From NCBI GenBank assembly GCA_041662125.1, contig JBAZTA010000001.1:195118-259117 (forward strand): 64,000 nt of DNA, given 5' to 3'. The translations under genes were made by a program, and so were the position numbers. This document shows positions 807 to 42,332 of this stretch, in pieces (the stretch's first letter is position 1; each line of letters begins with the position of its first letter). The notes below the pieces were generated by a model. That model was not told the origin of the DNA. It saw only the letters and a program-made list of their open reading frames with translations, and did not search any database. Source of the stretch: Candidatus Omnitrophota bacterium (GTDB lineage Bacteria > Omnitrophota > Gorgyraeia > Gygaellales > Profunditerraquicolaceae).

Positions 807-807
807 C

Positions 808-1380: not shown

Positions 1381-1401
1381 AGATCACCCGCCATTTCTCT
1401 T

Positions 1402-2544: not shown

Positions 2545-2546
2545 AA

Positions 2547-3545: not shown

Positions 3546-3559
3546 ACGCCTATTTACCC

Positions 3560-4210: not shown

Positions 4211-4226
4211 TACTCTACCTTCATCT

Positions 4227-5222: not shown

Positions 5223-5227
5223 ATACT

Positions 5228-8171: not shown

Positions 8172-8214
8172 ACATGTCCAAATGGAGTCAATACTACCAA
8201 ATTACATTTTTCTC

Positions 8215-8255
8215 TAAAAAAGAAAAGAGGGACATTCCGCCCCTTTCGTAATTTC
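8215..8255 (-). terminator. Putative intrinsic terminator after the Wzc gene
   Basis: On the minus strand: AAAGGGGcggaatgtCCCCTcTTT stem-loop followed by TCTTTTTTAG. Confidence 0.35.
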
Positions 8256-8288
8256 TAAAAAAACCAAAACTTTGCGCACGAGCACGAT

Positions 8289-10423: not shown

Positions 10424-11209
10424 ATGAATCCTATCTTAGAAGTTAACGCAATAACCAAGAATTTCTTTTCTCCCCCTTCCTTCAAACAACTCTTCAGAGG
10501 CAACAAAAAAAAAGAAACTCCGGTACGAGCGCTGGAAAACATTTCATTTTCTCTTAAACCTGGAGAAATCATCTCCCTGCTTGGACCCAATGGGGCGGGA
10601 AAAACGACACTTCTTAAGATTATCGTAAAGCTTCTACTTCCAGACCAAGGCTCAATTATTGTAAACGGTTATACCAGTGAGGTTAACGATGAGAAAATAA
10701 AATCCACCTTGGGTATAGCAACTTCTGCTGAACGCAGCTTTTACGCCAGGTTAAGCGGAAGGCAAAACCTGGAATTCTTTGCCGCGCTGTATGGACTAAA
10801 CAAAAAACAAACTAAAAACAAGATCCAGGAACTGGGCGGATTCTTCAATGCGCATTACCTCGATAAACGCTTTGATACATATTCCGCAGGCATGCAACAA
10901 ACCTTAGGGCTCATACGAGGGCTTATGCATGAACCAAAATTACTCCTGCTTGATGAGCCCACAAAATCACTCGATTACATAAGCACGCAACACCTGCATG
11001 GGTTTATCAGAGATTTATCAAAACAATACGGCACGGCCATTATCATGACAACACATCGTATGGATGAAGCGGCACATTTCGCGGGGCTCATCATGATACT
11101 TGATAAAGGCAGGCTTCGCGCGTTCGGGAGCCGGGATGAGATCAGAAAACAAATAGCTCAACCTCATGCCACCTTAGAGGAAATATTTACCCGGCTGACG
11201 ACCCTATGA
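10424..11209 (+). CDS. ABC transporter ATP-binding protein (Wzt-like, ABC-2 exporter)
   Basis: 261 aa. Walker A GPNGAGKTT, signature YSAGMQQ, Walker B LLLLDEPT. Confidence 0.8.
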   Translation: MNPILEVNAITKNFFSPPSFKQLFRGNKKKETPVRALENISFSLKPGEIISLLGPNGAGKTTLLKIIVKLLLPDQGSIIVNGYTSEVNDEKIKSTLGIATSAERSFYARLSGRQNLEFFAALYGLNKKQTKNKIQELGGFFNAHYLDKRFDTYSAGMQQTLGLIRGLMHEPKLLLLDEPTKSLDYISTQHLHGFIRDLSKQYGTAIIMTTHRMDEAAHFAGLIMILDKGRLRAFGSRDEIRKQIAQPHATLEEIFTRLTTL

Positions 11210-12012
11210 CCAATAAAATCATCGCCTTTTTAAAAAAAGACTTTCTCATCGAATCAAGTTACAAGTTATCATTTATTTTTAACGCGTTAAGCGTTCTGGC
11301 CAGTACCCTGGCTTATTTCTTTATCGATAAATTATTCGGGCATCTGATCGTCGGGCATTTGCAGGAATTTGGCGTGACCTATTTCTCGTATGTGCTTTTA
11401 GGCATGGCTACTTTTAGCTATGTCGGAGTCGGCATAGGATCATTTTCAGCGCGGCTGCACTCTGAACAGGTCCAGGGGACATTGGAAGCAATCCTTTCGA
11501 CCCCAACGTCGATCCCTACCCTCTTATATTCACTGGCTAACTAGAACCTCTGCCTGGCGACATTCGATATGCTGATCTATATTATTTTAGGGGTCTATTT
11601 GTTTCATATAGACCTTTCCCATATTAATATCCTCTCAACCGGGATAATCTTTATACTTACCATCGCCACTTTCAGCAGCCTCGGCATTATTTCTGCGAGT
11701 TTCATCATGGTCTTTAAACGGGGCAATCCTATCAGTTGGCTGGCCAGCAACCTTGAAGGGCTTATTGGAGGGGTTTATTTCCCGATAACGGTTTTGCCGG
11801 CATGGGGGCAATTCCTGGCAAAACTTTTTCCCATTACCTATGCGATCAGGGCGCTGCAATTGTCAGTCTATCAGGGCTACAGTCCCCAACAGTTAAAAAA
11901 AGAGATCCTCGCCCTCTTCCTCTTTACCCTTATCCTGCTCCCCTTGAGCCTTTCCTTATTCAAACACAGCATTAAAATAGCGAAGAAAAACGGCAGCCTC
12001 GCAAAATATTAA
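11206..12012 (+). pseudogene. ABC-2 type transporter permease (Wzm-like) interrupted by an in-frame TAG at 11542-11544
   Basis: ORFs 11206-11544 and 11569-12012 are in the same frame (…LYSLAN*NLCLATFDMLIYII…) and together give a canonical ~265-aa six-TM ABC-2 permease. Start overlaps the ATPase stop (ATGA). Confidence 0.6.
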
Positions 12013-12600: not shown

Positions 12601-12876
12601 TTAAACGGGAATTACCAGGCCTTTGCTCACTAGCTCTTCAATAAACTCCACAGCATCCTTTTGCAGGCTGCTTTCTTCGACTTCAAATTCATCATGAATA
12701 ATCACGAGGATCTCCCGGCAGGTTTTAGTGCCGTCAATAAGTTCCCAAATTCTCGTACCTGCCGCATTCAAAGGATAGATCAATCCGTCTTTCGGATCAA
12801 CCAACAATGCCTCTTCTTCAATCGTCCTCCAGGCAATACTCTGGTTACGCTTTATTTTCTTATCCAATAATTCCAT
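12601..12876 (-). CDS. PqqD-family RiPP recognition element (RRE) protein, stand-alone
   Basis: Matches K. pneumoniae PqqD from memory: W..(hydrophobic)..P..G....LN..(A/G)..I.EL.DG..........EF.........V.EF…L…KG motifs line up (IAWRT…YPLNAAGTRIWELIDGTKT…DAVEFIEELVSKGLV). Start assigned to the internal ATG at 12876, which has a GGAGG RBS; the ORF-track start at 12933 would overlap the kinase gene by 74 nt. Confidence 0.75.
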   Translation of the reverse strand: MELLDKKIKRNQSIAWRTIEEEALLVDPKDGLIYPLNAAGTRIWELIDGTKTCREILVIIHDEFEVEESSLQKDAVEFIEELVSKGLVIPV

Positions 12877-13669
12877 CAATATACCTCCAGATAGCTTCAT
12901 CCTGTTTAAAATAAAGTTGGTAACAGGGCACATTGTGCGTCAGATCCGCCAAAGAGACTAATAAAGTATTAACAATAGCCCTATCAGGAATATTGACCAA
13001 AATATTATGCAGTAATTCCTTAACGGCATCAGCCTGTTTAAGGCGGCGATGCGTAAACAATCTATCTTTAGAAATCAAGAAGATCGCTTTAAGCGGCGCT
13101 CCCTTGTTTTCATCAGGTAAACCAAAATCACCAAAGAAAGGCGTCGCATACGCATAGAATTTGCCTTTACGCTTAAGGATCGCCGCTGTTTCATCTGTCA
13201 AAACAATACTGCCTTGAGACAGCCGCGCAATAGTAGTTTTACCGCTCTCTGAGGGCCCAAAGAACACATACGAAAAACCACGGTGTAAAACTACACTTGC
13301 GTGCAGCAGGAATCCGCTTTTTTTCAATAAAACAACAAAACACAAAAACCGCAGCACATCAACAATCCCGACATCGGGCACTGCTGAAACACTCACCTTT
13401 TTCTTGCAAAAATCAACCTTCAGGTCAAAGGTCGCTGTTTTAAATTTCGATAAACTCTTTTGAAAGCAGTTGCAAGAACTATACCGCAGATCCTTAGGTC
13501 CTTTTCTTTTGTTTAATTGCAATGATACCAGATAATCCGGCCTATCCTGAGTGACAAAAAGGCAATAATTTTTCTTCAACCAAGTGATCTGCCGCAACTC
13601 TGCGCATCCAACTTCAAAAACAATGTCTACAAGTTTAATTTTTATCCGGTGGGCCATAATTCTTATCAA
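12860..13669 (-). CDS. HprK-related kinase (HPr kinase/phosphorylase C-terminal-domain-like), RiPP-tailoring-kinase type
   Basis: 269 aa. LHASVVLHRGFSYVFFGPSESGKTTIA is the HprK P-loop (G.SG.GKS/T) context. Start overlaps the upstream peptidase stop (ATGA). Confidence 0.7.
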   Translation of the reverse strand: MIRIMAHRIKIKLVDIVFEVGCAELRQITWLKKNYCLFVTQDRPDYLVSLQLNKRKGPKDLRYSSCNCFQKSLSKFKTATFDLKVDFCKKKVSVSAVPDVGIVDVLRFLCFVVLLKKSGFLLHASVVLHRGFSYVFFGPSESGKTTIARLSQGSIVLTDETAAILKRKGKFYAYATPFFGDFGLPDENKGAPLKAIFLISKDRLFTHRRLKQADAVKELLHNILVNIPDRAIVNTLLVSLADLTHNVPCYQLYFKQDEAIWRYIDGIIG

Positions 13670-14112
13670 AATTTTTTAAGCAGATATCTAAGCCGCGCTA
13701 TGCAGGGAAGAAAAAACGCTAAACACAACCCAAAGATCCGGGCATTCCAGGTATCAAGACAAACCACGCCTTTGTCTTTCTTAACCAAAGTTACCTTGCC
13801 AAGCAATTCTTTTGAGCCGATAAAAGTTTCAAGTGAAAAACCGGTATCAGCTTTCGCCATGACAAGCAATTCGCCGTTTCTACGCGCTTTCTTGATGACT
13901 CTATGGCTTATGAGACTATTCTGCCTCTTAAAAACAACTATATCACCATAATGCAGCTGGCTGAGCAAACAAGGAGAAATCGAGACAAGATCATTTTCTT
14001 TTAAAACCGGCACCATACTCTTACCGGTAACCCGCGCCCAACTTCCTTGATTCTTTTGCAACGCTTCGCTAAACAAAGTAAGTGAGCACAAAGAAAAATC
14101 ATGCTCAGTCAT
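13666..14112 (-). CDS. S24/S26-family (LexA/signal-peptidase-like) serine peptidase; candidate leader peptidase
   Basis: 148 aa. TGKSMVPVLKENDLV…YGDIVVFKR matches the G-x-S-M-x-P…GD…K Ser/Lys-dyad motif. ATG overlaps the TAA of the upstream peptide ORF (TAATG). Confidence 0.5.
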   Translation of the reverse strand: MTEHDFSLCSLTLFSEALQKNQGSWARVTGKSMVPVLKENDLVSISPCLLSQLHYGDIVVFKRQNSLISHRVIKKARRNGELLVMAKADTGFSLETFIGSKELLGKVTLVKKDKGVVCLDTWNARIFGLCLAFFLPCIARLRYLLKKF

Positions 14113-14270
14113 TATGAAGAATTAGTAGTACGCTGGCCCTTGCCTGTGCCAGTACGGCTGGTTTGAGAACACGTTACTGCAGTTGCCCTGCAACAAAGCG
14201 CAGCCCCTACTTCCATCATTTTAACTGCCTTTAACTGCGGTTTCTCATATGGTTTCTTTTTTTTGTTCAT
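14112..14270 (-). CDS. Candidate RiPP precursor peptide (52 aa), not in ORF track
   Basis: Minus strand AGGGAGGTGCC-ATG…TAA translates to MNKKKKPYEKPQLKAVKMMEVGAALCCRATAVTCSQTSRTGTGKGQRTTNSS. Basic leader with a Y-x-x-P-x-L motif; Cys/Ser/Thr-rich C-terminal half ending in Ser-Ser. 10 nt after the rSAM stop; stop overlaps the peptidase start. Confidence 0.5.
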   Translation of the reverse strand: MNKKKKPYEKPQLKAVKMMEVGAALCCRATAVTCSQTSRTGTGKGQRTTNSS

Positions 14271-14280
14271 GGCACCTCCC

Positions 14281-15354
14281 TTAACTTATCCTGTCATTAT
14301 ACAACTCATAATCAACTTTTGAAATACAACGCAGGGTATCATAACAAGCTTTTACATCTTTTTTCTCTAAATATGCTAACCCTAAGCACTTCTTGCAAAA
14401 ACGGATATACCGGCAATCCAGGCAATCCGGCATATCAGCGTAGGTGCGCAAATTATCCAATTCTTTGCGTAATGCTGACGGCGATTGCCAGATCTCTCGA
14501 AAACTCATCTTTCTGATATTTCCCATGGGGATCAACAGTTGAATACAGGGATACACATCCCCGTACGGAGAAATATAACAACCGATCACTCCTGTTCCGC
14601 ATAAGAGTTTTTCAAGCGGCTTATCCCAATAACCATGCTTCTTTTCAGAAAGAGGGATATTCGCGCGGGCAATCATTGAACGGATCTGGCCCTCATTGAT
14701 CTGATATTGTTTAGGCTCAGGCGAACCGTCATTTTTACAGGAAAGCTCCATGGTAAAACGATACGCCTGCGCTCCTATCTGATAACAGAATTCTTCAATT
14801 TCTTTTTCTTGATGCACATTACCATTCATTATAGCTGATTTCAATACTACCTTCAAATGATTATCTTTCAAGGATTTCACCGCTCTGCAGAGCTCTTCAA
14901 ACGATCCCGGCCGCCGCGTAATAGCATCATGCACTGCTGCAGTTGAACCATAAACGCTCATTTCAACACATAAAGGAGAAAGCTCTGCAATACGCCTGGC
15001 GCAGGTATCATCGATCAAGGTAGCGTTGGTGAAAATATTCAGCGCGAAATTCTTTTTTCTGGCATAGCGGGCAATCTTAAAAAAATCCCGGCGCAAGAAA
15101 ACTTCCCCTCCGGAAAGGGTAAGATATAATGATCCGACCTCAGATAACTGGTCTAAGAGAGAGAATATTTCACCGGTAGATAATTCTTTTTGGTTAGAAG
15201 GAAAGCTTTCTGACAAACCTTGACAATAACAGTGGATACAATCCTGATTACACCGATAGGTCAGGTCAAGATGGGCCCAAAGAGGTATTTTTCGCTCTTC
15301 TACCTTAGCTAAGATGGTATTAAATTGATATTCTGCCTTGTGGCACGATTGCAT
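14281..15354 (-). CDS. Radical SAM / SPASM-domain peptide-modifying enzyme
   Basis: 357 aa. CNQDCIHCY is the CxxxCxxC radical SAM motif. C-terminal SPASM-type Cys cluster: CGTGVIGCYISPYGDVYPC…CLDCRYIRFCKKC. Confidence 0.8.
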   Translation of the reverse strand: MQSCHKAEYQFNTILAKVEERKIPLWAHLDLTYRCNQDCIHCYCQGLSESFPSNQKELSTGEIFSLLDQLSEVGSLYLTLSGGEVFLRRDFFKIARYARKKNFALNIFTNATLIDDTCARRIAELSPLCVEMSVYGSTAAVHDAITRRPGSFEELCRAVKSLKDNHLKVVLKSAIMNGNVHQEKEIEEFCYQIGAQAYRFTMELSCKNDGSPEPKQYQINEGQIRSMIARANIPLSEKKHGYWDKPLEKLLCGTGVIGCYISPYGDVYPCIQLLIPMGNIRKMSFREIWQSPSALRKELDNLRTYADMPDCLDCRYIRFCKKCLGLAYLEKKDVKACYDTLRCISKVDYELYNDRIS

Positions 15355-15372: not shown

Positions 15373-18300
15373 TTACTTCTTAATGACCATAGCCGGGTCG
15401 CCAAAAAGATTATAGGTTTCTAAGATCGCCCTGATATTAGGATTATTCTTTTCGTACACATATTTCTTTGCCAACTGTATTGCTTCACCAAAACTCATAT
15501 TCATATTATTGTTATCAAATACCGCCTGATAGAAACCTTTCGCGAAGAATTCCTGCTCTTCAGGAGAACTCACGATACTGGGAAATACCCCGCCTGCCGC
15601 TCCTTTATCAGGAGTTAAAAGCAATACTTCACCCACTGAATCAAGAATCCTTTGCGGATATATAAAATAACCGTTAGCGCAGGTCAAAGTAATAAAGAAT
15701 GGATATTTTCCCGTATTGGTAAGGCGCCCCACATCCGCATTGGTAAATACACGGCTGGTCGACCATAAACTTATTCCTCCGTGTCCCGTATACGTGACAA
15801 AAGAAACTCCCCGGTTAATTTCCTCAAGGATCCCCTGATGCACGGCCGATGCGCTATCATTATCGAGGTATAACTTGACCTTTTGATCAGGAGCAGGGAA
15901 TTCCAGCGCCAGCCTATCAGAAAGCGACGAATAGGCTTTATGTTCATCTCCATCAGCTACGAGAAGATGGTTTCCGGTAGAATACCCTGCTGTTTCATAA
16001 TTAATGATCTTCTGTATGACTGCCTGCAGTTGCACTGTGTCGTTAACCGGGAGTCGGCCGATCATCATTTTTGGCAGAGCTGAATCTTCAAATGTAGCAA
16101 ACCAGCCATCTGAAGGCCCTTCTCCAAAACGGCCTGCATATACCAGGTATGCCGGCACCAGATTTTTAGCGCCTAATTGATACTGATCTTTATAATCAAA
16201 CGTACCGTCCCCGACAAACAACACATATTTTGGCTTCGGCAGCTGCCAATTCAGATAGGCATACTTCAAGAAATCTTTAATAGCAACCGGCGAGAAAACC
16301 CCGTAATTAAACGCATCATATATCTCATCGACCGTTACAACTTTGACCGAGTACCCTTGAGATGCCCTATACTCTACTAAAGGTTTAATACCCTCGAGGA
16401 AATCGCTATGCGTAATGACAATATAATCCGCCTGGTTAGTTTTCTTTATGATATCAGAAGGCCCAGATTGCGTGATCTCAACCGGCGAGCGCACCCCTTT
16501 ATCGGATACCGCCACGTACATCCGCTTATTCTTGTCACGATTATTAAATCGCGCGCTGTATGTTAACCCGTTATTTTCAACGCTGACATTGGCAAGCCGC
16601 ACCGGCCGGTTTTCTCTCGTAATATCAAACACATTAATTTTATCTGAGCTAAACCCAGTAATATAATACGTCGAGGCTTGAGCTTTTCCTTCAAACACAA
16701 GCGCATCATTTTGAGCAACGAAATTACGCGGGTATTGCAGCTTAACCCAATCCAAAAGCACTAATTGAGGAAGCAGGCCACCGTCGTCAGGAACTTCGAT
16801 CCTGAGGATATTCGAGCCTTCGGATAAAACAGTCGCATCAAATTCCCCCTGACAGACATAATACGTATCTCCATTCCACTGCCCAGCAGCAACGGCAACT
16901 CCATTAATATACACTTTTATTTTTTGCAGGTTGTTGCCCGCCATTAATATACTTGAGAACCCCTGCAGCCCTATTTGAATACGCGCGCTGCCTCCGGAAA
17001 CATTTAATTGGTCAACAGAAAGCTCTAATTCATAGTCCATAGGAGAAAATAATTCATCCGCCCAAAACCAGTGCTCTTCGCCGTTAATTTCAGGATAATA
17101 ACTGCTGTTATCTTCCAGCTTTACCTCGCTCATATAATAACCTTGCACAGTTCCGGCAGAAGACGCAAGCCTATTTTCTATTCTTTCTCCATTTTTATTT
17201 ATCATAAGCCAATAAATATTGCGTTTGGCATAACGGGTATCAATTGCCTTGGCGTAAAACTCGATATAATCATCCCCGGCAATGACCGACACCACTTTAC
17301 CCTGATTAAGCAGTTTGATATTCGCAGGGTCAAACAGGCTTGCATCAAAGCCTGCCGTTTGCAGATCAAGTTTAGTGAGCCGGTACATCCCATCCTGCTC
17401 AACTGCCAGTTTGAACACATCTTTCTGATTTTGCACCCTTTGCAGGCGAACCGCGGGAACATTCAGGGCATCCTTAAGGGTATTACGCTCTTTAAGTTTC
17501 TTGCCGTTACGCAATAGTATACTCTCTTCTTTATCCAGCCAGGAATTATCTCCGACTCCGACACTTACCGGGCCGACATACGTTTCTCCTGTAGGCCGGT
17601 TAAGAACTCCCAAGATATAATAATAATTCACATTGGGTTCGGTATCAATCACTTCGTAATTCTTGCCGCTGATCGGGCCGCCGCAGGAAGGAATGAATTT
17701 ACCTACCGGCACATAACTTTCTTTGTTATCCGGGGTCAAGCTGCGGTATACCTGGAAGCCTTTAACGGCAATTTCTGATTCGCTGGTAAAACGCACAGAA
17801 ATATTATTATCTCTGTTGTAATTCGCCGCTAATGAAACGATCTTTGCCGCGGTAGGTTCGCTAATAGCGATATAACGCAGGCTCATAAGAGCAAAGTCCC
17901 AATCCCTGGTTGCTGCGGCAGTCGCGGTAGATGTAGAAGTACCCAGCCTTAAATTTCCCAGGTTATTCGTCGTATCGATATAATCAGGCAGATTATTCTG
18001 ATACGTAGTAGTATAAAACGTTAACGTTGTAGTCGCGTTAGTCGAACCGGAACTGATCCAGCCTCCGGTCGTATTATTAATTCCGGTATAATCTAGCAAA
18101 CCTAATGTCACGGTATTGGTTGCCAGATTGCTCCTAAACCTGTTCGCAAGCCTGATACCGGTGATTTTTGAACCATATGGGATCGTTAAAGGGAATGAAA
18201 GATTACTTGATGAGCAATAGTTCGTTGCCCATGTCCCTGCCCGGTCTAAAGCATAAAACGTTGCAGCGCTCGTCGTAACCGTAGTATGCTGCCAGGTGGA

Positions 18301-20931
18301 ATCAGCGGAGCTGGTATCCATAGTCATGGTATTAGCTGCGGTAGTGCCTCCAGCCTCAGTTCCGAAGCTCGTTTCCGATAAAGAAACATTATTATTAACT
18401 GAACCTACAATGATATACATTAAATCAAGGGAATGATTATAACTTAACGCGGGAGCATTCGTCAGAATACCGACGCGCATTTCCCCTTCAGAAGACATAT
18501 AATCCGATAACGTAACATTTGACTTGGCGAAATAATAGGTTGCTTCCGTGGTATTTGAAAGGGTAGTAGCGTTCAAATTCTCCCAAAGTGTCGTGTTAAA
18601 ATTATAAATCTGCACATTATAGGTCAATGCCACATTAGAAACCAATCCTTCATATGCGACCATGACCGTATTAGCCCCGGTATAAGCGGCAACATTCATA
18701 AATGACAAATAATACTGTAATGCCGCCCCTGCAACATTAGGAACAGTAATACGGTTATTATCAGTCGTAAAGGTATAATCATAGGTATTGGTTTCTGTGC
18801 CTCCGGCAACTTTCGTATATCCGGCTGGTTCATAATAAGGATCAATAGCTACTTCTAATACCATTCTATCCATATAATGGATATACGAATTTGTTGTATA
18901 GCTGGAATATATCCGCAGCATCACCCTGTTATTATTTGCGGTATCTACAAAGTTTGACAGAGGCGTGGATACAGGACTGTTGCCTGACTGCCAATATCCG
19001 TCATAGATCTCCCAAACCCGGTCAGCATCAGCGGTATTGGTTAATGTCGTATTTCGCTCATTTAACGGCCTCCAGGTAGCATTCAACACATCATAGATCT
19101 GCACCTGATAGGTCAAAGCGGCATTAGATACATAGCCGCCTTCATAAATAATTAATTTATTAGCTGCCTTTAAATCAACTCCTTCAATATAGATCCGTTT
19201 ATCTAACCCATCACTTCCTCCCGTAACACTACTGGTTGCCCAATATACCGTATCATTAGCTAATGTCCCTTTCCATCCTGCAGAGGTAGCAGAAAGCGCT
19301 GCTTCTGTGCCCATGGCAAGACTAAATCCTGTTGGGCTATAACCGGCTTGTATCGAAGGACGGGTCGGAACTTCAACCCAGCGGATACTCATCATAGCAA
19401 AATCCCAGTCCCGGGTCACGGTCGCGGTCGCGGTAGAAGCGGAAGTTCGCAGCCTCAAATTACCCAGATCATTCGTACTATCGATAAAATCAGGACAGTT
19501 ATTCTGATAGGTCGTAGTATAAAATGTTATGGTTGTCGTAAGATTCGTTGAGCCTGAATCAACCCAGCCTCCTGTCGCGGCATTAATCCCTGAATAATCT
19601 TTTAAACTTAAGGCAACGGTATTTGCGGTTGAGTTACTTCTGAACCTGTTCACCATCCTGATACCGGTGACCGCGCAGCCATCCGGCACGGTGATCGGAA
19701 ATGAAAGATTTGACGAAGCAGAATAATTAGTCCCCCAGGTTCCTGCCCTATCGGAAGTATAAAACGTAGCAGCGCTCGTCGCAACCGTATCATGCTGCCA
19801 GGTAGAATTAGCGGAGCTACTGTCCATATCCCTGGTATTAGCAACAGAGGAGCCCACGGTTTCTGTGCCAAAAGATGTTTCAGACAAGCCCGCGTCGGTA
19901 TTGACGGAACCGACAATAATATACAATGAATCAATATTATGGTTACGGGTTGCCGCAGGGGCATTGGTCAAGAAACCTATTCGAGCCTCTCCATCCTGTA
20001 TATAATCAGCCAGATCGACATTTGACTTCGCGAAATAATAGGTGGTTTCCGTAGTATTAGAAAGCGTGGTGCCGGAAAGATTTTCCCAGTTTGAAGTAGT
20101 AAAATTATATATTTGTACATCATAGGTTAAAGCAACGTTAGAAACAGCGCCTTCATACGTCACCTCTATAGCGTTAGCACCGGGATAAGTCTTTACATTG
20201 TTAAAAGAGAAATAATATTGCGACGTAGCTGCTACATTACTAGCGACCGTTAAACGCGTATTATCCGAAGTAAAGGTATAATCATAGGTATTAGTAACTG
20301 CGCCGCCTGAAACTTTAGTAAAACCCGCCGCCTCATAATACGGGTCAACGGCTACTTCTAACAACATACGCTCTACATAGTGAGTACGGGCAACCGAAAC
20401 ATATGTCGAATAAATACGCAAGGTTACCCGCTGATTGGCATCCTGGGTCACAAAATTGGATAAGGGAGTTGAAATGGGGATGTTGCCTGCCTGCCAATAT
20501 CCATCATATATTTCATAGGTATAATTGGTATCAGCGGTATTGGCTAAGGTAACATTGCGTTCATTAAGCGTCCGCCAAGTGGCATTAACCACATCATAGA
20601 TCTCCACCAGATACACTAATGCCGCGTTAGAACTATACCCGCTATAACTAATAATGAATTTATTAGCGCCTTTTATATCCACACCGTCAATATAAATTTC
20701 CTTATCTAAGCCAACGCCTCCGGCTATAAGGTTGCCCGTCGCCCAATAAACGTTCTCATTTGCCAAAGCCCCTTTCCATCCCGAAGAGGTGGCAGAAAGC
20801 GCTACTTCTGTACCAACAACCAAATTATAACCGGTAGGAGTATAGCCGGAGTTAGCCCATACCTTATAAAAAACACACAATACTGAAAAACAGATGAAGA
20901 ATAATAAAAAAACAAGATTTATTTTTCTCAT
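15373..20931 (-). CDS. Giant secreted protein: signal peptide, two ~500-aa tandem repeat domains, pro-region, C-terminal peptidase C25 (gingipain-like) catalytic domain
   Basis: 1852 aa. N-terminal signal peptide MRKINLVFLLFFICFSVLCVFYKVWA. C-terminal YTGHGGISLWSTS…PFFITLTCANGYF matches the gingipain His/Cys dyad context (Kgp NYAGHGSETAWGTS…FIFDVACVNGDF). AAGGAG RBS. Confidence 0.8.
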   Translation of the reverse strand: MRKINLVFLLFFICFSVLCVFYKVWANSGYTPTGYNLVVGTEVALSATSSGWKGALANENVYWATGNLIAGGVGLDKEIYIDGVDIKGANKFIISYSGYSSNAALVYLVEIYDVVNATWRTLNERNVTLANTADTNYTYEIYDGYWQAGNIPISTPLSNFVTQDANQRVTLRIYSTYVSVARTHYVERMLLEVAVDPYYEAAGFTKVSGGAVTNTYDYTFTSDNTRLTVASNVAATSQYYFSFNNVKTYPGANAIEVTYEGAVSNVALTYDVQIYNFTTSNWENLSGTTLSNTTETTYYFAKSNVDLADYIQDGEARIGFLTNAPAATRNHNIDSLYIIVGSVNTDAGLSETSFGTETVGSSVANTRDMDSSSANSTWQHDTVATSAATFYTSDRAGTWGTNYSASSNLSFPITVPDGCAVTGIRMVNRFRSNSTANTVALSLKDYSGINAATGGWVDSGSTNLTTTITFYTTTYQNNCPDFIDSTNDLGNLRLRTSASTATATVTRDWDFAMMSIRWVEVPTRPSIQAGYSPTGFSLAMGTEAALSATSAGWKGTLANDTVYWATSSVTGGSDGLDKRIYIEGVDLKAANKLIIYEGGYVSNAALTYQVQIYDVLNATWRPLNERNTTLTNTADADRVWEIYDGYWQSGNSPVSTPLSNFVDTANNNRVMLRIYSSYTTNSYIHYMDRMVLEVAIDPYYEPAGYTKVAGGTETNTYDYTFTTDNNRITVPNVAGAALQYYLSFMNVAAYTGANTVMVAYEGLVSNVALTYNVQIYNFNTTLWENLNATTLSNTTEATYYFAKSNVTLSDYMSSEGEMRVGILTNAPALSYNHSLDLMYIIVGSVNNNVSLSETSFGTEAGGTTAANTMTMDTSSADSTWQHTTVTTSAATFYALDRAGTWATNYCSSSNLSFPLTIPYGSKITGIRLANRFRSNLATNTVTLGLLDYTGINNTTGGWISSGSTNATTTLTFYTTTYQNNLPDYIDTTNNLGNLRLGTSTSTATAAATRDWDFALMSLRYIAISEPTAAKIVSLAANYNRDNNISVRFTSESEIAVKGFQVYRSLTPDNKESYVPVGKFIPSCGGPISGKNYEVIDTEPNVNYYYILGVLNRPTGETYVGPVSVGVGDNSWLDKEESILLRNGKKLKERNTLKDALNVPAVRLQRVQNQKDVFKLAVEQDGMYRLTKLDLQTAGFDASLFDPANIKLLNQGKVVSVIAGDDYIEFYAKAIDTRYAKRNIYWLMINKNGERIENRLASSAGTVQGYYMSEVKLEDNSSYYPEINGEEHWFWADELFSPMDYELELSVDQLNVSGGSARIQIGLQGFSSILMAGNNLQKIKVYINGVAVAAGQWNGDTYYVCQGEFDATVLSEGSNILRIEVPDDGGLLPQLVLLDWVKLQYPRNFVAQNDALVFEGKAQASTYYITGFSSDKINVFDITRENRPVRLANVSVENNGLTYSARFNNRDKNKRMYVAVSDKGVRSPVEITQSGPSDIIKKTNQADYIVITHSDFLEGIKPLVEYRASQGYSVKVVTVDEIYDAFNYGVFSPVAIKDFLKYAYLNWQLPKPKYVLFVGDGTFDYKDQYQLGAKNLVPAYLVYAGRFGEGPSDGWFATFEDSALPKMMIGRLPVNDTVQLQAVIQKIINYETAGYSTGNHLLVADGDEHKAYSSLSDRLALEFPAPDQKVKLYLDNDSASAVHQGILEEINRGVSFVTYTGHGGISLWSTSRVFTNADVGRLTNTGKYPFFITLTCANGYFIYPQRILDSVGEVLLLTPDKGAAGGVFPSIVSSPEEQEFFAKGFYQAVFDNNNMNMSFGEAIQLAKKYVYEKNNPNIRAILETYNLFGDPAMVIKK
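17854..20850 (-). repeat. Tandem duplication, 2 x ~1.5 kb, encoding two ~500-aa paralogous domains inside the giant C25 gene
   Basis: Protein residues 28-528 and 529-1026 align end to end at about 65-70% identity (SGYTPTGYNLVVGTEVALSATSSGWKG… / AGYSPTGFSLAMGTEAALSATSAGWKG…). DNA blocks are visibly similar about 1.5 kb apart. Confidence 0.7.
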
Positions 20932-20979
20932 AATCCCGAACTCCTTATTTTGTTACTGTTAAGACATCCCGAAAATAAA

Positions 20980-21010
20980 AAAACCCATTGCCTAATCATC
21001 AATGGGTTTT
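20980..21010 (-). terminator. Intrinsic terminator-like hairpin plus U-tract, between the NTase gene and the giant C25 gene
   Basis: Minus strand: AAAACCCATTGatgattaggCAATGGGTTTT stem-loop (11-bp stem), then TTTTTTTATTTTCGGG. Lies only about 30 nt upstream of the AAGGAG RBS of the next gene. Confidence 0.5.
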
Positions 21011-21169
21011 ACCTAAAAACTCACCATCATTTTCGGCAGCTGACTGTCTTGGCCTTTTGGCTTTAGACTCTTTAAGCTTTGCGCCCTGAGCTTTCGCTAA
21101 GTTTGCCCTTTTCGTATCTCTTTTCCTATCCAAATGTAAGTATATCATATGATTACAACAAAAACAAGT

Positions 21170-22231
21170 TTAAAAAGACTTAGCGGCTTTCCAGCGCACA
21201 CCCGCAGAAATAGCCTTTATTTTGTTAAAAAATCCTTTCTGTATCGCTAAGTATAAAAGAACACATGCGTCTTCACGGGGAAAATCGTTATTTTTCGCAT
21301 AAGTAAAGAAATATTTCTCTAAAAGAGACATTCCCTGCGGCCGTAATGTCGAAAGAAAATCCTCAGGCACAGGAGTAGAAAACAATTCTTTGATCAACGA
21401 AACTCCCATATATATAGGTAAAACAAGCCCCCATTGACGGCCCAAAGCAGCAATTTCCTGCCAATCAAGTGAATCTCGATACGCCAACACAAATGCATGT
21501 AAATCATAAAGGATATTGAGCCGTGCAAATCCATGGCGCATCCCATGTTCACACAACGCGGTAAACATCTGTTCTGGTGGCATCATAAACAAATTATCTT
21601 TATTTTTATCTATTCGAACTCCTGCATCCCAGATTTCTTCAACATCGACTCCTGAGGCTTGCTTGCGTAATAAAGGCATCGAAACATTAGATAAACCCCA
21701 ATGCAGATGCAGCGGCATAAAGACCGATTGGTCCTTATCGTGTTTTAAGAACATTGCCGCGGTCGATTCGCCTGATGGTGCATTTTTTTCCCGCGTATCA
21801 AAATTTCTATATCCCAGCGATCCAATAAGATGGCGTGCTTTCTCCACATTGGCCGCTTTTACAAGAAAATCAACATCTTCCATGCGCCTTACCCCAATGC
21901 GAGCCTGATAAACTACATGTAAAAAAAACATCCCCTTAAGCACTATGATCTCTATCCCAGCGGCCGCAAAGGCCGTGCGCAACTTTTCAAATTCCTCTAA
22001 CAAGAGGGTATTACGAAAAAGATTCATTCTATACTTCTCTTGGAGCTGTTGGTAAACCTCATCAGGAATACTTAAATCTTTTTGCCGGTCTCTGACAATA
22101 TGAAATAAAAGGGCTGATACTTTCGAACGAGCAGCAATACTCACTAACCGCCCCCAATCGCATTTCTTCCCGTTATAAGGAAGAAATTTTCCATTCAATA
22201 ACGAAACTAAATATGTTTTTACCGGTGTCAT
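21170..22231 (-). CDS. Nucleotidyltransferase-family protein, PF14907/NTP_transf_5-like
   Basis: 353 aa. IIVLKGMFFLHVVY…RRMEDVDFLVKAANVEKARHLIGSLGY resembles the LKG…D(I/V)D(L/F)LV core of the uncharacterised nucleotidyltransferase family that co-occurs with HprK-like kinases in lasso/RiPP clusters. Confidence 0.45.
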   Translation of the reverse strand: MTPVKTYLVSLLNGKFLPYNGKKCDWGRLVSIAARSKVSALLFHIVRDRQKDLSIPDEVYQQLQEKYRMNLFRNTLLLEEFEKLRTAFAAAGIEIIVLKGMFFLHVVYQARIGVRRMEDVDFLVKAANVEKARHLIGSLGYRNFDTREKNAPSGESTAAMFLKHDKDQSVFMPLHLHWGLSNVSMPLLRKQASGVDVEEIWDAGVRIDKNKDNLFMMPPEQMFTALCEHGMRHGFARLNILYDLHAFVLAYRDSLDWQEIAALGRQWGLVLPIYMGVSLIKELFSTPVPEDFLSTLRPQGMSLLEKYFFTYAKNNDFPREDACVLLYLAIQKGFFNKIKAISAGVRWKAAKSF

Positions 22232-22249: not shown

Positions 22250-23149
22250 TTAGAACTTTTGTATTTCCTGATTGACATACGAGCCTCGTGAAAGAGGTTC
22301 AAGTATCTGGCTGAGGAAGTAATTAAGGTTGGCAATGAATTTCTTCGGGACAAAGATTATATCTTCCGACACAAGAGAGATATTCTGATTAGCATCCCCT
22401 TTAAGCACCTTATTGAGCGTGATACGTTTGACTTCAGGCTTTTCCAAACCGCCCCGTATAATAACAATACTGGAAGCGACAGCATCCTTGGTCAGCCCGC
22501 CGGCTAAGGTAATAGCTTCAACGATCGTTTTAGCGCCGGTAAGGGAATAGACACCTGGCCGGTAAATTTCGCCCAGCAGCAGCACTTTTTGCCCTCCTAT
22601 TTTCTTAATAGAGATAGAGACTTCCGGATGCTTTACGTATTCCTTTAATCGCTCTGTAAGCAAGGCATCAAGTTCAGTAATAGTAAGTCCTACCACATCA
22701 ACATCTCCAATTAAGGGAAAAGAAATCTTTCCATCCGGCCGTACCACAACTTCCTGGTCAAGGTCCTGATTTTGCCAAACTAAAATATGCAAAACATCAT
22801 CTTCGCCAATGGTATATTCCTGAAGCGGCTTTTTCTTTGCATTCAAATTCTTTGCTACCGGCGGCTGAAGCGGTTGTTCCAGGCTCATCGGCTCTCCGGC
22901 CGCAGTTTGCGCTGCCTGCTTATCCTGAAACGTTATCGCCGGTGTTTCTTCCTTCTGATTCAAAAGGCCTAATGCATTGTTAAACTCAGCTTGAGCTTCC
23001 TGGAACTTTCCCTGCTGGTAATACAAATTACCTTTGAGATAATGTTCACGTGCCTGCTCCTGGGCATGGTCATCCTGCCCGTATATGCACGGAACCACCA
23101 TCCCGGACATTAAGAGAACAAACACTATTTTTTTAACGCGATCAAGCAT
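22250..23149 (-). CDS. Polysaccharide export protein (Wza/GumB/KpsD family; Poly_export + SLBB)
   Basis: 299 aa. Signal peptide, then YTIGEDDVLHILVWQNQDL…VRPDGKISFPLIGDVDVVGLTITEL (Poly_export), then an SLBB-like C-terminal part. Confidence 0.75.
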   Translation of the reverse strand: MLDRVKKIVFVLLMSGMVVPCIYGQDDHAQEQAREHYLKGNLYYQQGKFQEAQAEFNNALGLLNQKEETPAITFQDKQAAQTAAGEPMSLEQPLQPPVAKNLNAKKKPLQEYTIGEDDVLHILVWQNQDLDQEVVVRPDGKISFPLIGDVDVVGLTITELDALLTERLKEYVKHPEVSISIKKIGGQKVLLLGEIYRPGVYSLTGAKTIVEAITLAGGLTKDAVASSIVIIRGGLEKPEVKRITLNKVLKGDANQNISLVSEDIIFVPKKFIANLNYFLSQILEPLSRGSYVNQEIQKF

Positions 23150-23154
23150 AGATA

Positions 23155-25110
23155 TTAGTTTTTGTTATTTGCAGGCTCTAAGATCACTTCGATCTTTCTT
23201 TTTAATTCTTCAGCGTCCTGCTTATCTTTAGAAAATATATCTGGAGACTCATTGCCGTAAGAGTTGGTGTTTATCTTATTCTGCAGAAGGGCATTGATAC
23301 GCACTGCGGAGGCCAAGTCATCAATGGTTTTTTTCTGAAGGTCTCTGGTTGCCGCTAATTCTTCCTGCAATTTTTCTGAACGCACGCGTAAACCAGCGAT
23401 CTCCTGGCGCAAGGAACCAAGTTCCCTGTTTTTTTGTTTCAACTCCGCCTCTTTATCATTCAAAAGCTGAGTTAACTGCGTAATCTGCGACCTCAGGCTG
23501 TTATATAATAAATTTACTTCATCAACATGCGATTGCTGTTTGGCTAACTCTTCCTGTGTTGAAGCTTTCGAGGCCTGGATCGCGGCAAGATTATTCTCCA
23601 GGGAGCGCTTCTCCTCTTCTTTACGTAATATCTGCTGGCTTAAATAATCGAGATTCTTTTGCAAAGAGGTACTTATTTCCTCTTTCTTTACCAGCGCCGA
23701 TTGGGCATCGTTTAACTGCGCCTGTAACGAAAGCTTCTGCGTTTCCAAATCCCGCACTTTCTCTTTATTATCCAAAGATGCCTTTTGGTTATTCTCCAAT
23801 TCCCCTACCTTATTCTGCAGTGAAAGCATTTTGTCTTTTGATAAGGATAATTCTGTTTTCACTTTATCTAATTCCAATTCCTTACGGATCATGATATCCG
23901 CCAGTTGCCTTACCTGCCCTGAAGTATTCTCAATTTCCGCGGATACTGCCGGATTACCGCTTTTATTCACCCGCAAACGTTCAAGCGATGCCGATAAGCG
24001 TTCTTTTTCAGCATTGAGTTTTGCGATAAGAGTATCTTGGCTGCTGATCTCATCCTGAGCCTGGCGCAGGGAGTCTTCTGACACACTTCTGCCTGATTCC
24101 CAATCCCTGACTCGCCGGACAGACTGCTTACTGCCGCTCAACTCCTCATCAACCGTCCCCAGGCGTGCTTTTAAGTCCGCGACATCATTCTTCAGGCGCG
24201 CGCTTTCCGTCTTTTGCGCGTCCAATTCCTGCCGTTTCTTTGATAATTCATCAGAGAGCATGGCAAGCTGGCTTTTGAGGTTACGATTAGCCGTCTCCAA
24301 TGAAGTAATCGAATCCTGATACTGCCGCGCCTGTTTTTCCTGAGTGAATTTGGCGGAATTTAATTGTGTAAACTCTGCCTGAAGAGAACTGATCTGGCTT
24401 CTCTTTTGAGCAAGTTCAGCATTAAGCTGCGAGATATTCTCTTCTAATGATTTTAACGGCCCACTCTGACGGGAAACCGTCTGCTGAAATTCAGAGATCT
24501 TAGACAGCAGAGATGACTTTTCAGTTTCCAGGTCTTTCACCTTTTTTTCAAGCAGTTTATTAATTTGGCGCTCGCCTTGCAGCTCTTTTAATTCTTTTTT
24601 AGCCTGGGCTAATTCCTCATCTTTGCCTTGGCTGCTCAAGGATAATTTCTCTATTTTCTCCCTTAAGGGGAGGATCTGGTTCTTATCCGCATGCAATAAT
24701 TGGCTTTTAATATTCTTAAGCTCTTCGGTCACACGGATAAATTCCTTGGTAGTATTCTGTAAACGATTAACCATACTGGAATTACTTTCCTGCAGCGTGA
24801 TCCGTTCTTTATTGACCGTGGCCAATTCCCGGCTTAACTGGTCTATAGTGGCTTGCGCATTGGTCACTGATTGCCGTATAGCCTCTACATGAGCAAGCCC
24901 TTTTAATGTTTTATCTTTTTCTTGAAGGGACATTTGCAGTTCCGCAGCCCTATTTTCTATCTCCTGGGTATAGCCCTGTAATTCTTCCTTTTCCTGATTT
25001 AATTGGGTATTTAAATCCTGGGCACGCGTCAGTTTTTCATAAACCATAAACGCTGCGTAACCAACAATAGCAATCACTACAATTATCCCTAGTAAACGAA
25101 TACGTTTCAT
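23155..25110 (-). CDS. Membrane-anchored long coiled-coil protein
   Basis: 651 aa. N-terminal TM (LLGIIVVIAIVGYAAFMV) followed by >550 aa of Q/E/K/L-rich heptad-like sequence. Confidence 0.45.
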   Translation of the reverse strand: MKRIRLLGIIVVIAIVGYAAFMVYEKLTRAQDLNTQLNQEKEELQGYTQEIENRAAELQMSLQEKDKTLKGLAHVEAIRQSVTNAQATIDQLSRELATVNKERITLQESNSSMVNRLQNTTKEFIRVTEELKNIKSQLLHADKNQILPLREKIEKLSLSSQGKDEELAQAKKELKELQGERQINKLLEKKVKDLETEKSSLLSKISEFQQTVSRQSGPLKSLEENISQLNAELAQKRSQISSLQAEFTQLNSAKFTQEKQARQYQDSITSLETANRNLKSQLAMLSDELSKKRQELDAQKTESARLKNDVADLKARLGTVDEELSGSKQSVRRVRDWESGRSVSEDSLRQAQDEISSQDTLIAKLNAEKERLSASLERLRVNKSGNPAVSAEIENTSGQVRQLADIMIRKELELDKVKTELSLSKDKMLSLQNKVGELENNQKASLDNKEKVRDLETQKLSLQAQLNDAQSALVKKEEISTSLQKNLDYLSQQILRKEEEKRSLENNLAAIQASKASTQEELAKQQSHVDEVNLLYNSLRSQITQLTQLLNDKEAELKQKNRELGSLRQEIAGLRVRSEKLQEELAATRDLQKKTIDDLASAVRINALLQNKINTNSYGNESPDIFSKDKQDAEELKRKIEVILEPANNKN

Positions 25111-25114
25111 ATTT

Positions 25115-26206
25115 TTAAACTTGATTATTTAAACATTCATCGACATAAATCATGGAATTATCCGCCAGATTAACCTGTTTAGGCTCTTTTAATTCTTTCC
25201 CATACGCGTCAATAATGATATTAACTACCGGACGCAGCGGTAAATCAAGATTTTCCCTGACCACTAAACCGATCTCTTTAGTATTAAGCCTGACCAGTGT
25301 CCCGAGAGGAAATACCCCTATGCGTTCGATCAATAATTTAATGATCTTATGGTCAAAAAATGACTTATTCTTTAAAATTGTTTTAATCGTCTCCAAAGGG
25401 CTGAATTTAAGGCGGTACGGGCGCTTATGGTTCATCGCCTCATAAACATCGACTAACCCGACAATGCGCGCATATTCACAGATCTGATCCTCCTTAAGGC
25501 CGGCAGGATACCCGGCACCATCCATACGCTCATGTTCCTGGCGCACGACATCAAAAACCCGCTGTCCGAATTCCCGGCCAAACTTTTGTACTATTTCAAG
25601 CCCTGCCAAAGGATGCTCTTTAATACGCTTGGTTTCTTCAAGCCTCAAAACATCTGGTTTATTGATAATATCGAAACACTTCACCATTCCTATGTCATGT
25701 GTCAGCGCAGCAACGCCTAATTCCATTAATCCAGCCTGGTCAAAGCGTAAACCTATCCCCAGCTCAAGAGAAATAACGCAGACATTAACGGTATGATAAT
25801 AAAAGTAATCCGTGGCTTGAGGATAATCAATTAAGCAACACCGCAATAAATTCTTATTGCCCCCTTGCAGCAACCCAATAGTTTTTTCAACCAACGGGGA
25901 AAGCGAAGCAAGGAATCCTTCCTCATATTTTAAATCAGGATTATACAATACGCGGGATGCCGATACGAGATGGTCATACAATTCAGAGGCTTTTGTGGCG
26001 TTAATACTATTTAACTCTTTATGAACAGCTGCTGAAATGCTGACTTGCTGTGCTTGCGGGACTTGGTTTTGATCTGCCGATCCTCCTGTACCCTGCGGGG
26101 GAACCCTGTACGCGCTTCCTAAAACACCCGAATTTATCTCAAAATCAGTATCAAGGTTTTTCTTTTGCTCCCTGTGTTTCTTGAAAATATCGGATATTCT
26201 AAGCAT
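25115..26206 (-). CDS. HD-GYP domain protein (putative c-di-GMP phosphodiesterase)
   Basis: 363 aa. HDIG motif (ALTHDIGM) and HERMDGAGYPAGL (HD-GYP signature). Confidence 0.7.
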   Translation of the reverse strand: MLRISDIFKKHREQKKNLDTDFEINSGVLGSAYRVPPQGTGGSADQNQVPQAQQVSISAAVHKELNSINATKASELYDHLVSASRVLYNPDLKYEEGFLASLSPLVEKTIGLLQGGNKNLLRCCLIDYPQATDYFYYHTVNVCVISLELGIGLRFDQAGLMELGVAALTHDIGMVKCFDIINKPDVLRLEETKRIKEHPLAGLEIVQKFGREFGQRVFDVVRQEHERMDGAGYPAGLKEDQICEYARIVGLVDVYEAMNHKRPYRLKFSPLETIKTILKNKSFFDHKIIKLLIERIGVFPLGTLVRLNTKEIGLVVRENLDLPLRPVVNIIIDAYGKELKEPKQVNLADNSMIYVDECLNNQV

Positions 26207-27041
26207 TCTTCTTGTCTAGCGGGAGTTGATTGCTGAAATTAGAGGCTTCGAGGTCATCATTTATTTTAGTAACTGTTTTCTTCTCGATCACGCTCATTTC
26301 ACTGCCAAAACCGACTAATAAGGCTAAATCACAAATATTATTGATCCGCCGCGGTATACCTCCCGAACAAAGGAATATTTCTTGATAGGCATCTTCTTCA
26401 AAGATCTGTTTTAAGGCTCCCGCGACATTTAAACGGTGCAGGATATATTCTTTCGTTTCCTGTTCGTTTAAGGCTTTGAGGTGAAAACGGACCGCCATAC
26501 GCTGGCTCAGCTGAGGTAAATTCGATACCGCGTAATTAAGCTCCGGCTGGCCTAATAAAATAAGCGTCAAAAGAAAAGCATTATCGAGCTGAAAATTCAA
26601 GAGAAGACGCAATTCCTCAAATATGTCTTTACTCTCAATGGCCTGGGCTTCATCGATCATGATCACAACATGCTTACCCATACTATGATTTGAATACAAT
26701 ATCTTATGCAGGCAATGGAACAGATCGATCTTCGTGGCCAGCTCTTCCCCTCCCAACTGATGGATGATCTCGCGGATGAATTCCAAACCGGAAAGCCGGG
26801 GGTTCAAGATAAAAACAGAATGGTATAAATGCTCCTGCTGTAATTCCTGCCAGAGGATACGGTTTAACAGAGTCTTGCCGCTTCCGTATTCTCCGGTAAT
26901 TAAACCCGCGCCCTTACGTTCCCGCACCACATACAGCATGCGCGCCAAAGCCTCTTTATGCTGTTGTGAATAATACACAAACCGCGGGTCAGGCGTATTC
27001 TCAAAGGGCTTCTCTTTTAAACCCCAGTATGGTTCATACAT
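26199..27041 (-). CDS. ExeA/GspA-like AAA+ ATPase (AAA_22), secretion- or EPS-locus-associated
   Basis: 280 aa. Walker A GLITGEYGSGKTLL, Walker B VVIMIDEAQ. Architecture typical of ExeA-type secretin-assembly ATPases. Confidence 0.65.
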   Translation of the reverse strand: MYEPYWGLKEKPFENTPDPRFVYYSQQHKEALARMLYVVRERKGAGLITGEYGSGKTLLNRILWQELQQEHLYHSVFILNPRLSGLEFIREIIHQLGGEELATKIDLFHCLHKILYSNHSMGKHVVIMIDEAQAIESKDIFEELRLLLNFQLDNAFLLTLILLGQPELNYAVSNLPQLSQRMAVRFHLKALNEQETKEYILHRLNVAGALKQIFEEDAYQEIFLCSGGIPRRINNICDLALLVGFGSEMSVIEKKTVTKINDDLEASNFSNQLPLDKKNA

Positions 27042-27044
27042 GCG

Positions 27045-27629: not shown

Positions 27630-27653
27630 TTCTCCTCCTCCTTTAACTAAAGA

Positions 27654-30435: not shown

Positions 30436-30436
30436 A

Positions 30437-42328: not shown

Positions 42329-42332
42329 AAAA

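Follow-up and report, generated by a model that had tools for sequence, protein, structure and literature searches.

A c-di-GMP riboswitch-preceded Omnitrophota protein that joins a Patescibacteria-type beta-sandwich array to a PorU-like C25 peptidase unit

Cysteine peptidases of family C25 from environmental metagenomes are routinely counted as 'gingipains', and to our knowledge none from outside the Bacteroidota has a known role. The 64,000-nucleotide (nt) stretch of a Candidatus Omnitrophota contig analyzed here (JBAZTA010000001.1, positions 195,118 to 259,117, in the following called the window) encodes a protein of 1852 amino acids (aa) with such a domain, which an earlier note had described as gingipain-like, in inverted order, behind an unstable tandem duplication. 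What kind of protein is this, and what might it do for the cell? As described below, it is a real, conserved chimera, in which a beta-sandwich array of Patescibacteria type is joined to a PorU-like C25 unit. With moderate confidence, we read the gene as encoding a cysteine peptidase with several domains and a mass of about 200 kDa that is exported by the Sec route, regulated by cyclic di-GMP (c-di-GMP) and targeted to a surface or a glycan. The gene and the parts of its product are arranged as follows:

15373..20931, minus strand: whole open reading frame (ORF), ATG start, 1852 aa
20941..20946, minus strand: ribosome-binding site AAGGAG, 9 nt before the ATG at 20931
20854..20931, minus strand: Sec-type signal peptide, residues 1-26, predicted from sequence features only
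19348..20850, minus strand: module copy A, residues 28-528, three jelly-roll beta-sandwich domains (about 28-200, 200-346 and 346-528) in the AlphaFold2 model
17854..19347, minus strand: module copy B, residues 529-1026, three-domain layout like that of copy A by alignment and model
17566..17853, minus strand: small beta-sandwich, residues 1027-1122 (AlphaFold2 model 2, strands through model residues 3-96, predicted local distance difference test (pLDDT) about 72-91)
17449..17556, minus strand: disordered Lys/Glu/Leu-rich linker, residues 1126-1161 (pLDDT <50)
16426..17418, minus strand: PorU-like beta domains, residues 1172-1502 (NCBIfam PorU model, family profile, Foldseek)
15376..16425, minus strand: Peptidase_C25 catalytic domain, residues 1503-1852 (Pfam, dyad and fold)
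15781-15783 and 15679-15681, minus strand: catalytic codons of His1717 and Cys1751, respectively

The mature product has a computed mass of about 200 kDa and an isoelectric point (pI) of 4.8, and the NCBI entry 'C25 family cysteine peptidase [Candidatus Omnitrophota bacterium]', encoded on a 646-kb contig, is identical to the 1852-aa protein. Its N-terminus reads MRK, a hydrophobic stretch and VWA followed by N, a form also present in the ortholog introduced below; the model has a helix at residues 2-20 and low confidence at residues 19-26. Together with the predicted signal peptide, an intact catalytic dyad supports the earlier note's description of a secreted C25-family protein.

Membership of peptidase family C25 of MEROPS clan CD is established by hidden Markov model, dyad order and fold, while peptidase activity is predicted from sequence and model. 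Pfam PF01364 (Peptidase_C25) covers residues 1503-1849 with model positions 1-373 of 374 (E 1.1e-87, 295 bits against a cut-off of 23). The motifs YTGH(1717)GG and TLTC(1751)ANG align with RgpB His211 and Cys244, and alignments of 24 and 32 relatives show no variation at either dyad residue. In the AlphaFold2 model of residues 1027-1852 (pLDDT 86, predicted template modelling score (pTM) 0.80), the beta-sandwich 1027-1122 is followed by the disordered linker, the PorU-like beta domains and the alpha/beta catalytic domain. The latter has a caspase-like alpha/beta fold and superposes on RgpB and Kgp with template modelling (TM) scores of 0.62-0.69 (gingipain-normalised) at root-mean-square deviations of 3.1-5.4 Å.

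The resemblance to Kgp and Rgp gingipains stressed in the earlier note is nevertheless not the closest one. Among solved structures, PorU (6ZA2) is nearest to the C-terminal 826 aa (Foldseek E 9e-30 over 817 columns), whereas RgpB scores E 6e-21, and RgpB and Kgp match the catalytic domain only. A family profile scores PorU with 269 bits, RgpB with 156 and Kgp with 82, and it matches PorU residues 19-208 besides the catalytic part. The best NCBIfam match is the PorU model NF033707, in which positions 106-732 of 1095 correspond to residues 1233-1850, but at 275.5 bits it stays below the equivalog cut-off of 420, as does the PorU2 model (242 against 450). The C-terminal 700 aa form a PorU-like C25 unit, i.e. 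beta domains and then a caspase-fold catalytic domain. PorU, the sortase of the Porphyromonas gingivalis type IX secretion system (T9SS), likewise consists of N-terminal beta domains followed by C25 with its His/Cys dyad. The sequence identity is only about 13-14%, however, PorU model positions 733-1095, which include the C-terminal domain (CTD), have no counterpart in the window protein, PorU lacks its 1000-aa N-terminal array, and the host here is an Omnitrophota bacterium with no T9SS genes identified in the window. The gingipains RgpB and Kgp (PDB 1CVR, 4IEF, 4RBM) have the catalytic fold and the YTGHG and C-x-NG motifs in common with the window protein at about 20% identity, but their prodomain, C-terminal Ig-like/adhesin domains and T9SS CTD are all missing from it. 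In line with the earlier note, neither T9SS CTD nor PEP-CTERM models match the whole protein at E<=1, and the chain ends 3 residues past the end of the C25 model.

With 27-33% identity over 80-98% of the query, the sequences nearest to the C-terminal 700 aa are those of uncharacterised environmental proteins of family C25. Environmental metagenomes commonly contain extracellular peptidases of this family (PMC8359207, PMC6365825). The relatives P0184-P0203 are about 1000 aa long and are composed of Propeptide_C25, PorU-like beta domains and C25. In most environmental relatives the C25 domain is located at the C-terminus or about 15-150 residues from it, in several within 1-2 residues and in three in the middle of the protein; a group of DUF11/TIGR01451 repeat proteins (P0059-P0082, 1250-3140 aa) mostly ends in a C25 unit as well. 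Since C25 lies near the C-terminus of the relatives, after the same PorU-like beta domains, nothing is inverted in the window protein, and the C25-last layout is the usual one outside Porphyromonas. What is unusual is that the Propeptide_C25 prodomain is missing and replaced by the module pair and the small beta-sandwich, a place taken in the environmental proteins by Propeptide_C25 or DUF11 repeats: PF08126 does not match the whole protein at E<=1 or its C-terminal half at E<=0.1, whereas P0184 and P0187 do match. Seven of the relatives (P0184, P0185, P0186, P0189, P0196, P0200 and P0201) have a short common C-terminal tail, (F/Y/L)LP(L/V/F)(V/I)x(R/K/Y), which is absent from the window protein and might represent a signal for sorting or anchoring that has not been described so far.

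The N-terminal half is built from the head-to-tail duplication of a beta-rich module that the earlier note had recognised. Residues 28-528 and 529-1026 align end to end with 334 identities in 502 columns (66.5%), and direct alignment of the DNA gives 68% identity over 1507 columns with a period of 1503 nt. The matching sub-domains of the two copies find each other in BLASTP with E values of 3e-88, 2e-71 and 3e-94. Tandem Repeats Finder does not report the 1503-nt repeat because this period exceeds the longest one handled by the tool (500). The duplication is genuine and not the assembly artefact that the earlier note had considered, since the longest exact DNA word common to both copies is 23 nt, an identical protein is called on a separately assembled Logan contig from run SRR18595301, and an ortholog in another metagenome-assembled genome (MAG; locus L001), intact with 1851 aa and 66% identical, contains the same two copies.

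According to the AlphaFold2 model of residues 1-1026, which was built with 50 homologs, the array is all-beta and rigid (pLDDT 91, pTM 0.86). Each module of about 500 aa consists of three jelly-roll beta-sandwiches, the whole array of six, and the first two sub-domains of the module are homologous to each other (E 1e-11). Library scans of the protein with Pfam and NCBIfam gave no family above threshold for the module. Weak, below-threshold matches to Kelch and DUF5640 were dismissed. Foldseek matches of the array comprise reelin repeats, tandem carbohydrate-binding modules (CBM) of family CBM22, Cry protoxin, CBM-type accessory domains of glycoside hydrolase family GH101 and phage tail/baseplate arrays; in its modelled fold, the array resembles tandem CBM-type or galactose-binding-like domains and phage receptor-binding arrays. 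It is rich in Thr (14%), Ala (10%), Ser (9%), Asn (9%) and Tyr, acidic (pI 4.5) and poor in Cys (3 per 1000 aa), with 24 N-x-S/T sequons. The small beta-sandwich that follows is Fn3-like by appearance, although no fold match was obtained for it; a similar one is located after the C25 domain of P0184.

Where does this module come from? An exhaustive HMMER search among 1.84 billion representatives found 119 clusters of the module family, for which there is no Pfam model. Of the 11 matches from a genome scan, with a 9-sequence alignment of the last 150 residues of the module as query, nine are from Patescibacteria (Falkow-, Magasanik-, Kerfeld-, Doudna-, Parcu- and Saccharibacteria and one 'Patescibacteria group'), while the remaining two come from a Planctomycetota MAG and from a genome labelled Gammaproteobacteria. 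Named protein matches and genome matches taken together are nearly all from Patescibacteria, Nomurabacteria included. A typical member of about 1300 aa starts with a hydrophobic segment, which is followed by the two modules and by some 170 aa of a beta-rich end; these two-module proteins are probably surface proteins. They (e.g. P0007, P0013, P0016, P0025, P0055) are like the window protein in the hydrophobic N-terminal segment and in two tandem modules of 500-550 aa with the three-domain layout, at 30-50% identity to its array. They differ in that they terminate in the beta-rich end rather than in a beta-sandwich and a PorU-like C25 unit, that many contain Cys-containing loop insertions, and that no riboswitch is present at their loci. 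The Patescibacteria two-module genes lie in a conserved operon of unknown proteins (L002, L003, L010, L013, L014, L017). Proteins of about 350 aa in this operon fall into the same similarity cluster as the module protein, and three further unknown families without Pfam matches recur in 5-6 of the 7 loci; none of the conserved neighbour families has a homolog in the window between 8 and 38 kb. In P0107, P0113, P0139, P0141 and P0148, an insertion of about 360 aa separates sub-domains 2 and 3 of each module.

No other representative of the module family contains a C25 domain. By its domain matches, P0095 (2103 aa) shows independently that the array has been combined with a hydrolase a second time, here a peptidoglycan endopeptidase domain: Peptidase_M23 at residues 413-501 precedes a module pair at 598-1679. 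One further member of the family matches PG_binding_1. A third ortholog of the window protein (L020, reached through P0085) is truncated and ends before the C-terminal half, and a metagenome scan yielded no further orthologs of the fusion. Neither the fusion of array and C25 nor the module family was found described in the literature.

The expectation that such a duplication is prone to copy-number variation was not confirmed. Mapping with phmmer shows two copies in 55 of 58 near-full-length homologs and four in the other three; a few single-copy proteins are present among the family representatives. Within one protein, copies 1 and 2 are 25% to 99% identical (median 60%), and seven proteins reach at least 95%. 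In P0007, P0008, P0009, P0011, P0016, P0021 and P0028 the copies are 97-99% identical, as opposed to only 25-45% in others, a contrast that suggests that copies were recently converted or duplicated anew while the architecture stayed fixed at two. Orthology of copy 1 to copy 1 across the family holds between close relatives only. This limited orthology, together with the wide range of copy identities, is the sequence signature of copies that evolve in concert while their number is constrained to two. The weak position-specific orthology (mean difference 0.004-0.010) rules out that the copies date from one ancient duplication and were never homogenised afterwards. The four Omnitrophota copies of the two orthologs are about equidistant, with all pairs 0.67-0.73 identical in DNA, and a sliding-window comparison revealed no recent gene-conversion tracts among them.

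Between the two Omnitrophota orthologs, nonsynonymous divergence (dN) amounts to 0.16-0.20 in copies A and B, 0.26 in C25, 0.41 in the PorU-like beta domains and 0.96 in the linker. By this measure, both module copies are the most constrained part of the 1852-aa protein. The linker 1126-1161 has 35% identity between the orthologs and seems near neutral with a dN/dS of about 0.95, a value that is merely indicative because the synonymous divergence (dS) of the orthologs is saturated; it is a candidate processing site. Overall, the labels 'inverted gingipain' and 'unstable duplication' arose mostly from comparison with the wrong reference.

A regulatory element that the earlier note does not mention is located in front of the gene:

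21032..21117, minus strand: c-di-GMP-I (GEMM-I) riboswitch aptamer in the 5' leader (Rfam RF01051)
20972..21010, minus strand: terminator-like hairpin AAAACCCATTG...CAATGGGTTTTTTTATTTT (expression platform), read from the sequence and folded, between aptamer and ribosome-binding site
21170-22231: NTP_transf_5 gene on the other side of the riboswitch from the C25 gene

The 238-nt leader of the C25 gene thus consists of aptamer, terminator-like hairpin and ribosome-binding site. The aptamer is the sole Rfam match in the window and scores 73.4 bits over the full model 1-87, against a gathering score of 35. Aptamers that likewise cover the full model precede both orthologs (L001:517-602, 80 bits; L020:1028-1112, 74.9 bits), the three show compensatory stem changes, and all three loci have the same order of NTP_transf_5 gene, riboswitch and module gene with a terminator after the aptamer. 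No such riboswitch is present at the Patescibacteria module loci or at those of the closest C25 relatives. In the L001 and L020 leaders, a strand of the second aptamer hairpin (P3) is complementary to the terminator, with duplex energies of -46.3 and -40.9 kcal/mol, respectively, compared to -24 to -25 +/- 4 for shuffled sequences. Ligand binding should therefore free the terminator, and on the basis of these two leaders the riboswitch is probably an OFF switch.

Taken together, these data lead to the following proposal. The array would target or attach the protein to a glycan or a cell surface and so keep the protease on the surface that bears its substrate. This may be the envelope or polysaccharide layer of the cell itself or of another cell, and the enzyme would cleave, or possibly transfer, surface proteins there. 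Binding of c-di-GMP would favour the terminator, and the protein would be made when c-di-GMP is low. c-di-GMP riboswitches are known to control adhesins and the protease ZmpI (PMC6366702), and the regulation proposed here would resemble that of the c-di-GMP-repressed ZmpI (PPEP-1) of Clostridioides difficile. This secreted protease, the expression of which is shut off at high c-di-GMP by a c-di-GMP-I riboswitch, cleaves adhesins off the surface and ties the second messenger to cell-surface remodelling (PMC6366702). ZmpI differs from the window protein in being an unrelated zinc metalloprotease without a binding array from a Gram-positive host, and the OFF direction in Omnitrophota is inferred from two orthologous leaders.

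Several points weigh against this reading of a surface- or glycan-targeted, c-di-GMP-regulated peptidase. The window leader itself gives no signal of complementarity between P3 and terminator (duplex -22.7 against -21.5 for shuffles), and the literature warns that ON or OFF behaviour is not extrapolable between c-di-GMP riboswitches. The fold matches of the array have low TM-scores (0.1-0.3), as expected for a six-domain query, and indicate a generic jelly-roll array only; no member of the module family has a known ligand or substrate. In gingipains, an acidic residue of the S1 pocket (RgpB Asp163, Kgp Asp516) sets the specificity for Arg or Lys. Its equivalent is not assignable in the window protein, where the profile alignment places Ser1668 opposite RgpB Asp163 and a conserved Ser-Asp (Asp1672) 4 residues on, in a poorly aligned loop. 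The resemblance to PorU also leaves room for transpeptidase rather than hydrolase chemistry. Moreover, the route of a 200-kDa protein across a diderm outer membrane without a T9SS is not explained, and the full fusion is found solely in the window protein and one Omnitrophota ortholog, i.e. in two genomes.

The genes around the C25 gene bear on what else the protein might do. Those directly downstream and the two secretin genes of the wider locus are:

12601..15354, minus strand: tightly packed downstream genes, which abut or overlap, after an 18-nt gap following the C25 stop codon
14281-15354, minus strand: radical S-adenosylmethionine (SAM)/SPASM enzyme
14112-14270, minus strand: 52-aa Cys-containing peptide (MNKKKKPYEKPQLKAVKMMEVGAALCCRATAVTCSQTSRTGTGKGQRTTNSS)
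13666-14112, minus strand: S24/S26-like peptidase
12860-13669, minus strand: ScmC-like P-loop protein
12601-12933, minus strand: PqqD
28642-30435 and 33728-35545, minus strand: two PilQ/GspD-type secretins

Judged by its spacing, the cassette 12601-15354 is probably part of the same operon as the C25 gene and would then probably be made together with the C25 protein at low c-di-GMP. It looks like a cassette for a ribosomally synthesised and post-translationally modified peptide (RiPP), and the ortholog locus L001 contains it in the same order with a conserved peptide core GAALCCRAT..TCS. A link of C25 genes with radical-SAM cassettes was looked for in other lineages, and none was found; the closest C25 relatives have no adjoining cassette. 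The C25 gene is embedded in a Wzx/Wzy-type polysaccharide locus (window 1-10223 and 22250-37130, minus strand) that encodes methyltransferases, glycosyltransferases (GT4, GT2), Wzx, Wzy, Wzc, Wza with a tetratricopeptide repeat (TPR) segment and long coiled-coil/TPR proteins. It also encodes an HD-domain protein that weakly matches a model of c-di-GMP phosphodiesterases and an ExeA-like AAA_22 ATPase with a below-cut-off match to pepcterm_ATPase; no exosortase was seen in this locus. A scan of nearly all genes in the window identified neither PorV, PorZ, PorQ, SprA or other T9SS genes nor proteins that have a C-terminal signal in common. The neighbourhood fits cell envelope and c-di-GMP biology.

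Two further observations concern other parts of the window. An ABC-2 permease beside an ABC ATPase (10424-11209) is represented by two separate ORFs (11206-11544 and 11569-12012, plus strand; 112 and 147 aa), where L001 has a single ABC2_membrane gene of 267 aa; the split may reflect a sequencing error, a frameshift or a pseudogene. Upstream, at 41840-47102 on the minus strand, lies a cluster like Mvh/Vhu-type [NiFe] hydrogenase subunits plus HdrA, which from its gene content suggests a hydrogen-linked, possibly electron-bifurcating metabolism in this Omnitrophota genome.

With this setting in mind, the peptidase could instead be a PorU-like sortase, in which the C25 unit acts as a transpeptidase that removes a C-terminal signal, either its own or that of other exported proteins, and couples the proteins to the flanking Wzx/Wzy polysaccharide. 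PorU couples T9SS cargo to anionic lipopolysaccharide (A-LPS). PorU being the best structural, profile and NCBIfam match and the position of the gene between Wza and the Wzc/Wzy/Wzx/glycosyltransferase genes speak for this possibility. It is nonetheless unlikely, as the score remains below the PorU equivalog cut-off (275 against 420), the model segment 733-1095 with the CTD is lacking, neither T9SS genes nor a shared C-terminal signal were identified among the scanned window genes, and the link to the polysaccharide locus rests on two genomes.

A second, similarly improbable explanation regards the module pair as a self-assembling envelope subunit of surface-layer (S-layer) type, with the C25 half required only for maturation, by self-cleavage at the linker, or for anchoring. 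The S-layer-like composition of the array, namely its Thr, Ala, Ser and Asn contents, pI of 4.5, few Cys and 24 sequons, agrees with such a coat. The same applies to the fixed two-copy state, the rigid model, the near-neutral disordered linker between the halves, and the Patescibacteria proteins of about 1300 aa from conserved operons, of which the pair is the main body. On the other hand, control by a second-messenger riboswitch would be unusual for a constitutive coat protein, none of the evidence bears on self-assembly, and the family is rare. With 119 clusters, the array cannot be a general Patescibacteria S-layer, even if it were a coat in the lineages that carry it.

The C25 protein might also belong to the RiPP pathway and remove the leader from, or otherwise process, the 52-aa Cys peptide on which the neighbouring radical SAM/SPASM enzyme would act. 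The 18-nt gap to the radical SAM gene, the gene order shared with L001 and the conserved peptide core are in favour of this, but the cassette contains an S24/S26-like peptidase of its own, a Sec signal and a 1000-aa array would be superfluous for a leader peptidase, and the closest C25 relatives lack such a cassette alongside, so that we consider this role very improbable. Finally, a duplication produced by mis-assembly, or an ORF that is a fused and decaying pseudogene, has practically no probability left: no point in its support was found, and it is contradicted by copies that are 68% identical in DNA with exact words of at most 23 nt in common, the identical ORF in a second assembly, the intact 1851-aa ortholog, low dN in both copies and two confident AlphaFold2 models.

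We return to the c-di-GMP-regulated peptidase targeted to a surface or glycan as the preferred reading. The points of real interest are the cross-phylum module, the fixed two-copy state with concerted evolution, and the riboswitch control. The evolutionary pattern is odd in that the two-copy state is fixed while the identity between copies spans 25% to 99%. For a C25 peptidase from outside the Bacteroidota, the locus offers three leads. Its regulator is defined, namely c-di-GMP by way of a riboswitch that is conserved across three lineages. Its genomic setting is defined as well, with polysaccharide-export and secretin genes beside a peptide-modification cassette. Thirdly, the targeting half connects the protein with a family of probable surface proteins of Patescibacteria that is as yet uncharacterised.

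If it is true that the array binds cell surfaces, the Omnitrophota fusion and about 100 Patescibacteria proteins would be candidate host-attachment factors in organisms that cannot as yet be cultivated alone. Patescibacteria and Omnitrophota are two groups of ultra-small, host-dependent bacteria. A more far-reaching idea, which we regard as speculative and rather doubtful, is that the array is a cell-to-cell attachment device that moved between the two groups and that in Omnitrophota was armed with a PorU-like C25 enzyme under the control of a c-di-GMP riboswitch. A surface-docking protease or transpeptidase and a radical-SAM-modified peptide would then be deployed in one phase of the lifestyle only, e.g. 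when seeking or attacking a host. If this were true, the array would provide a first molecular handle on how such organisms recognise and attack their partner cells.

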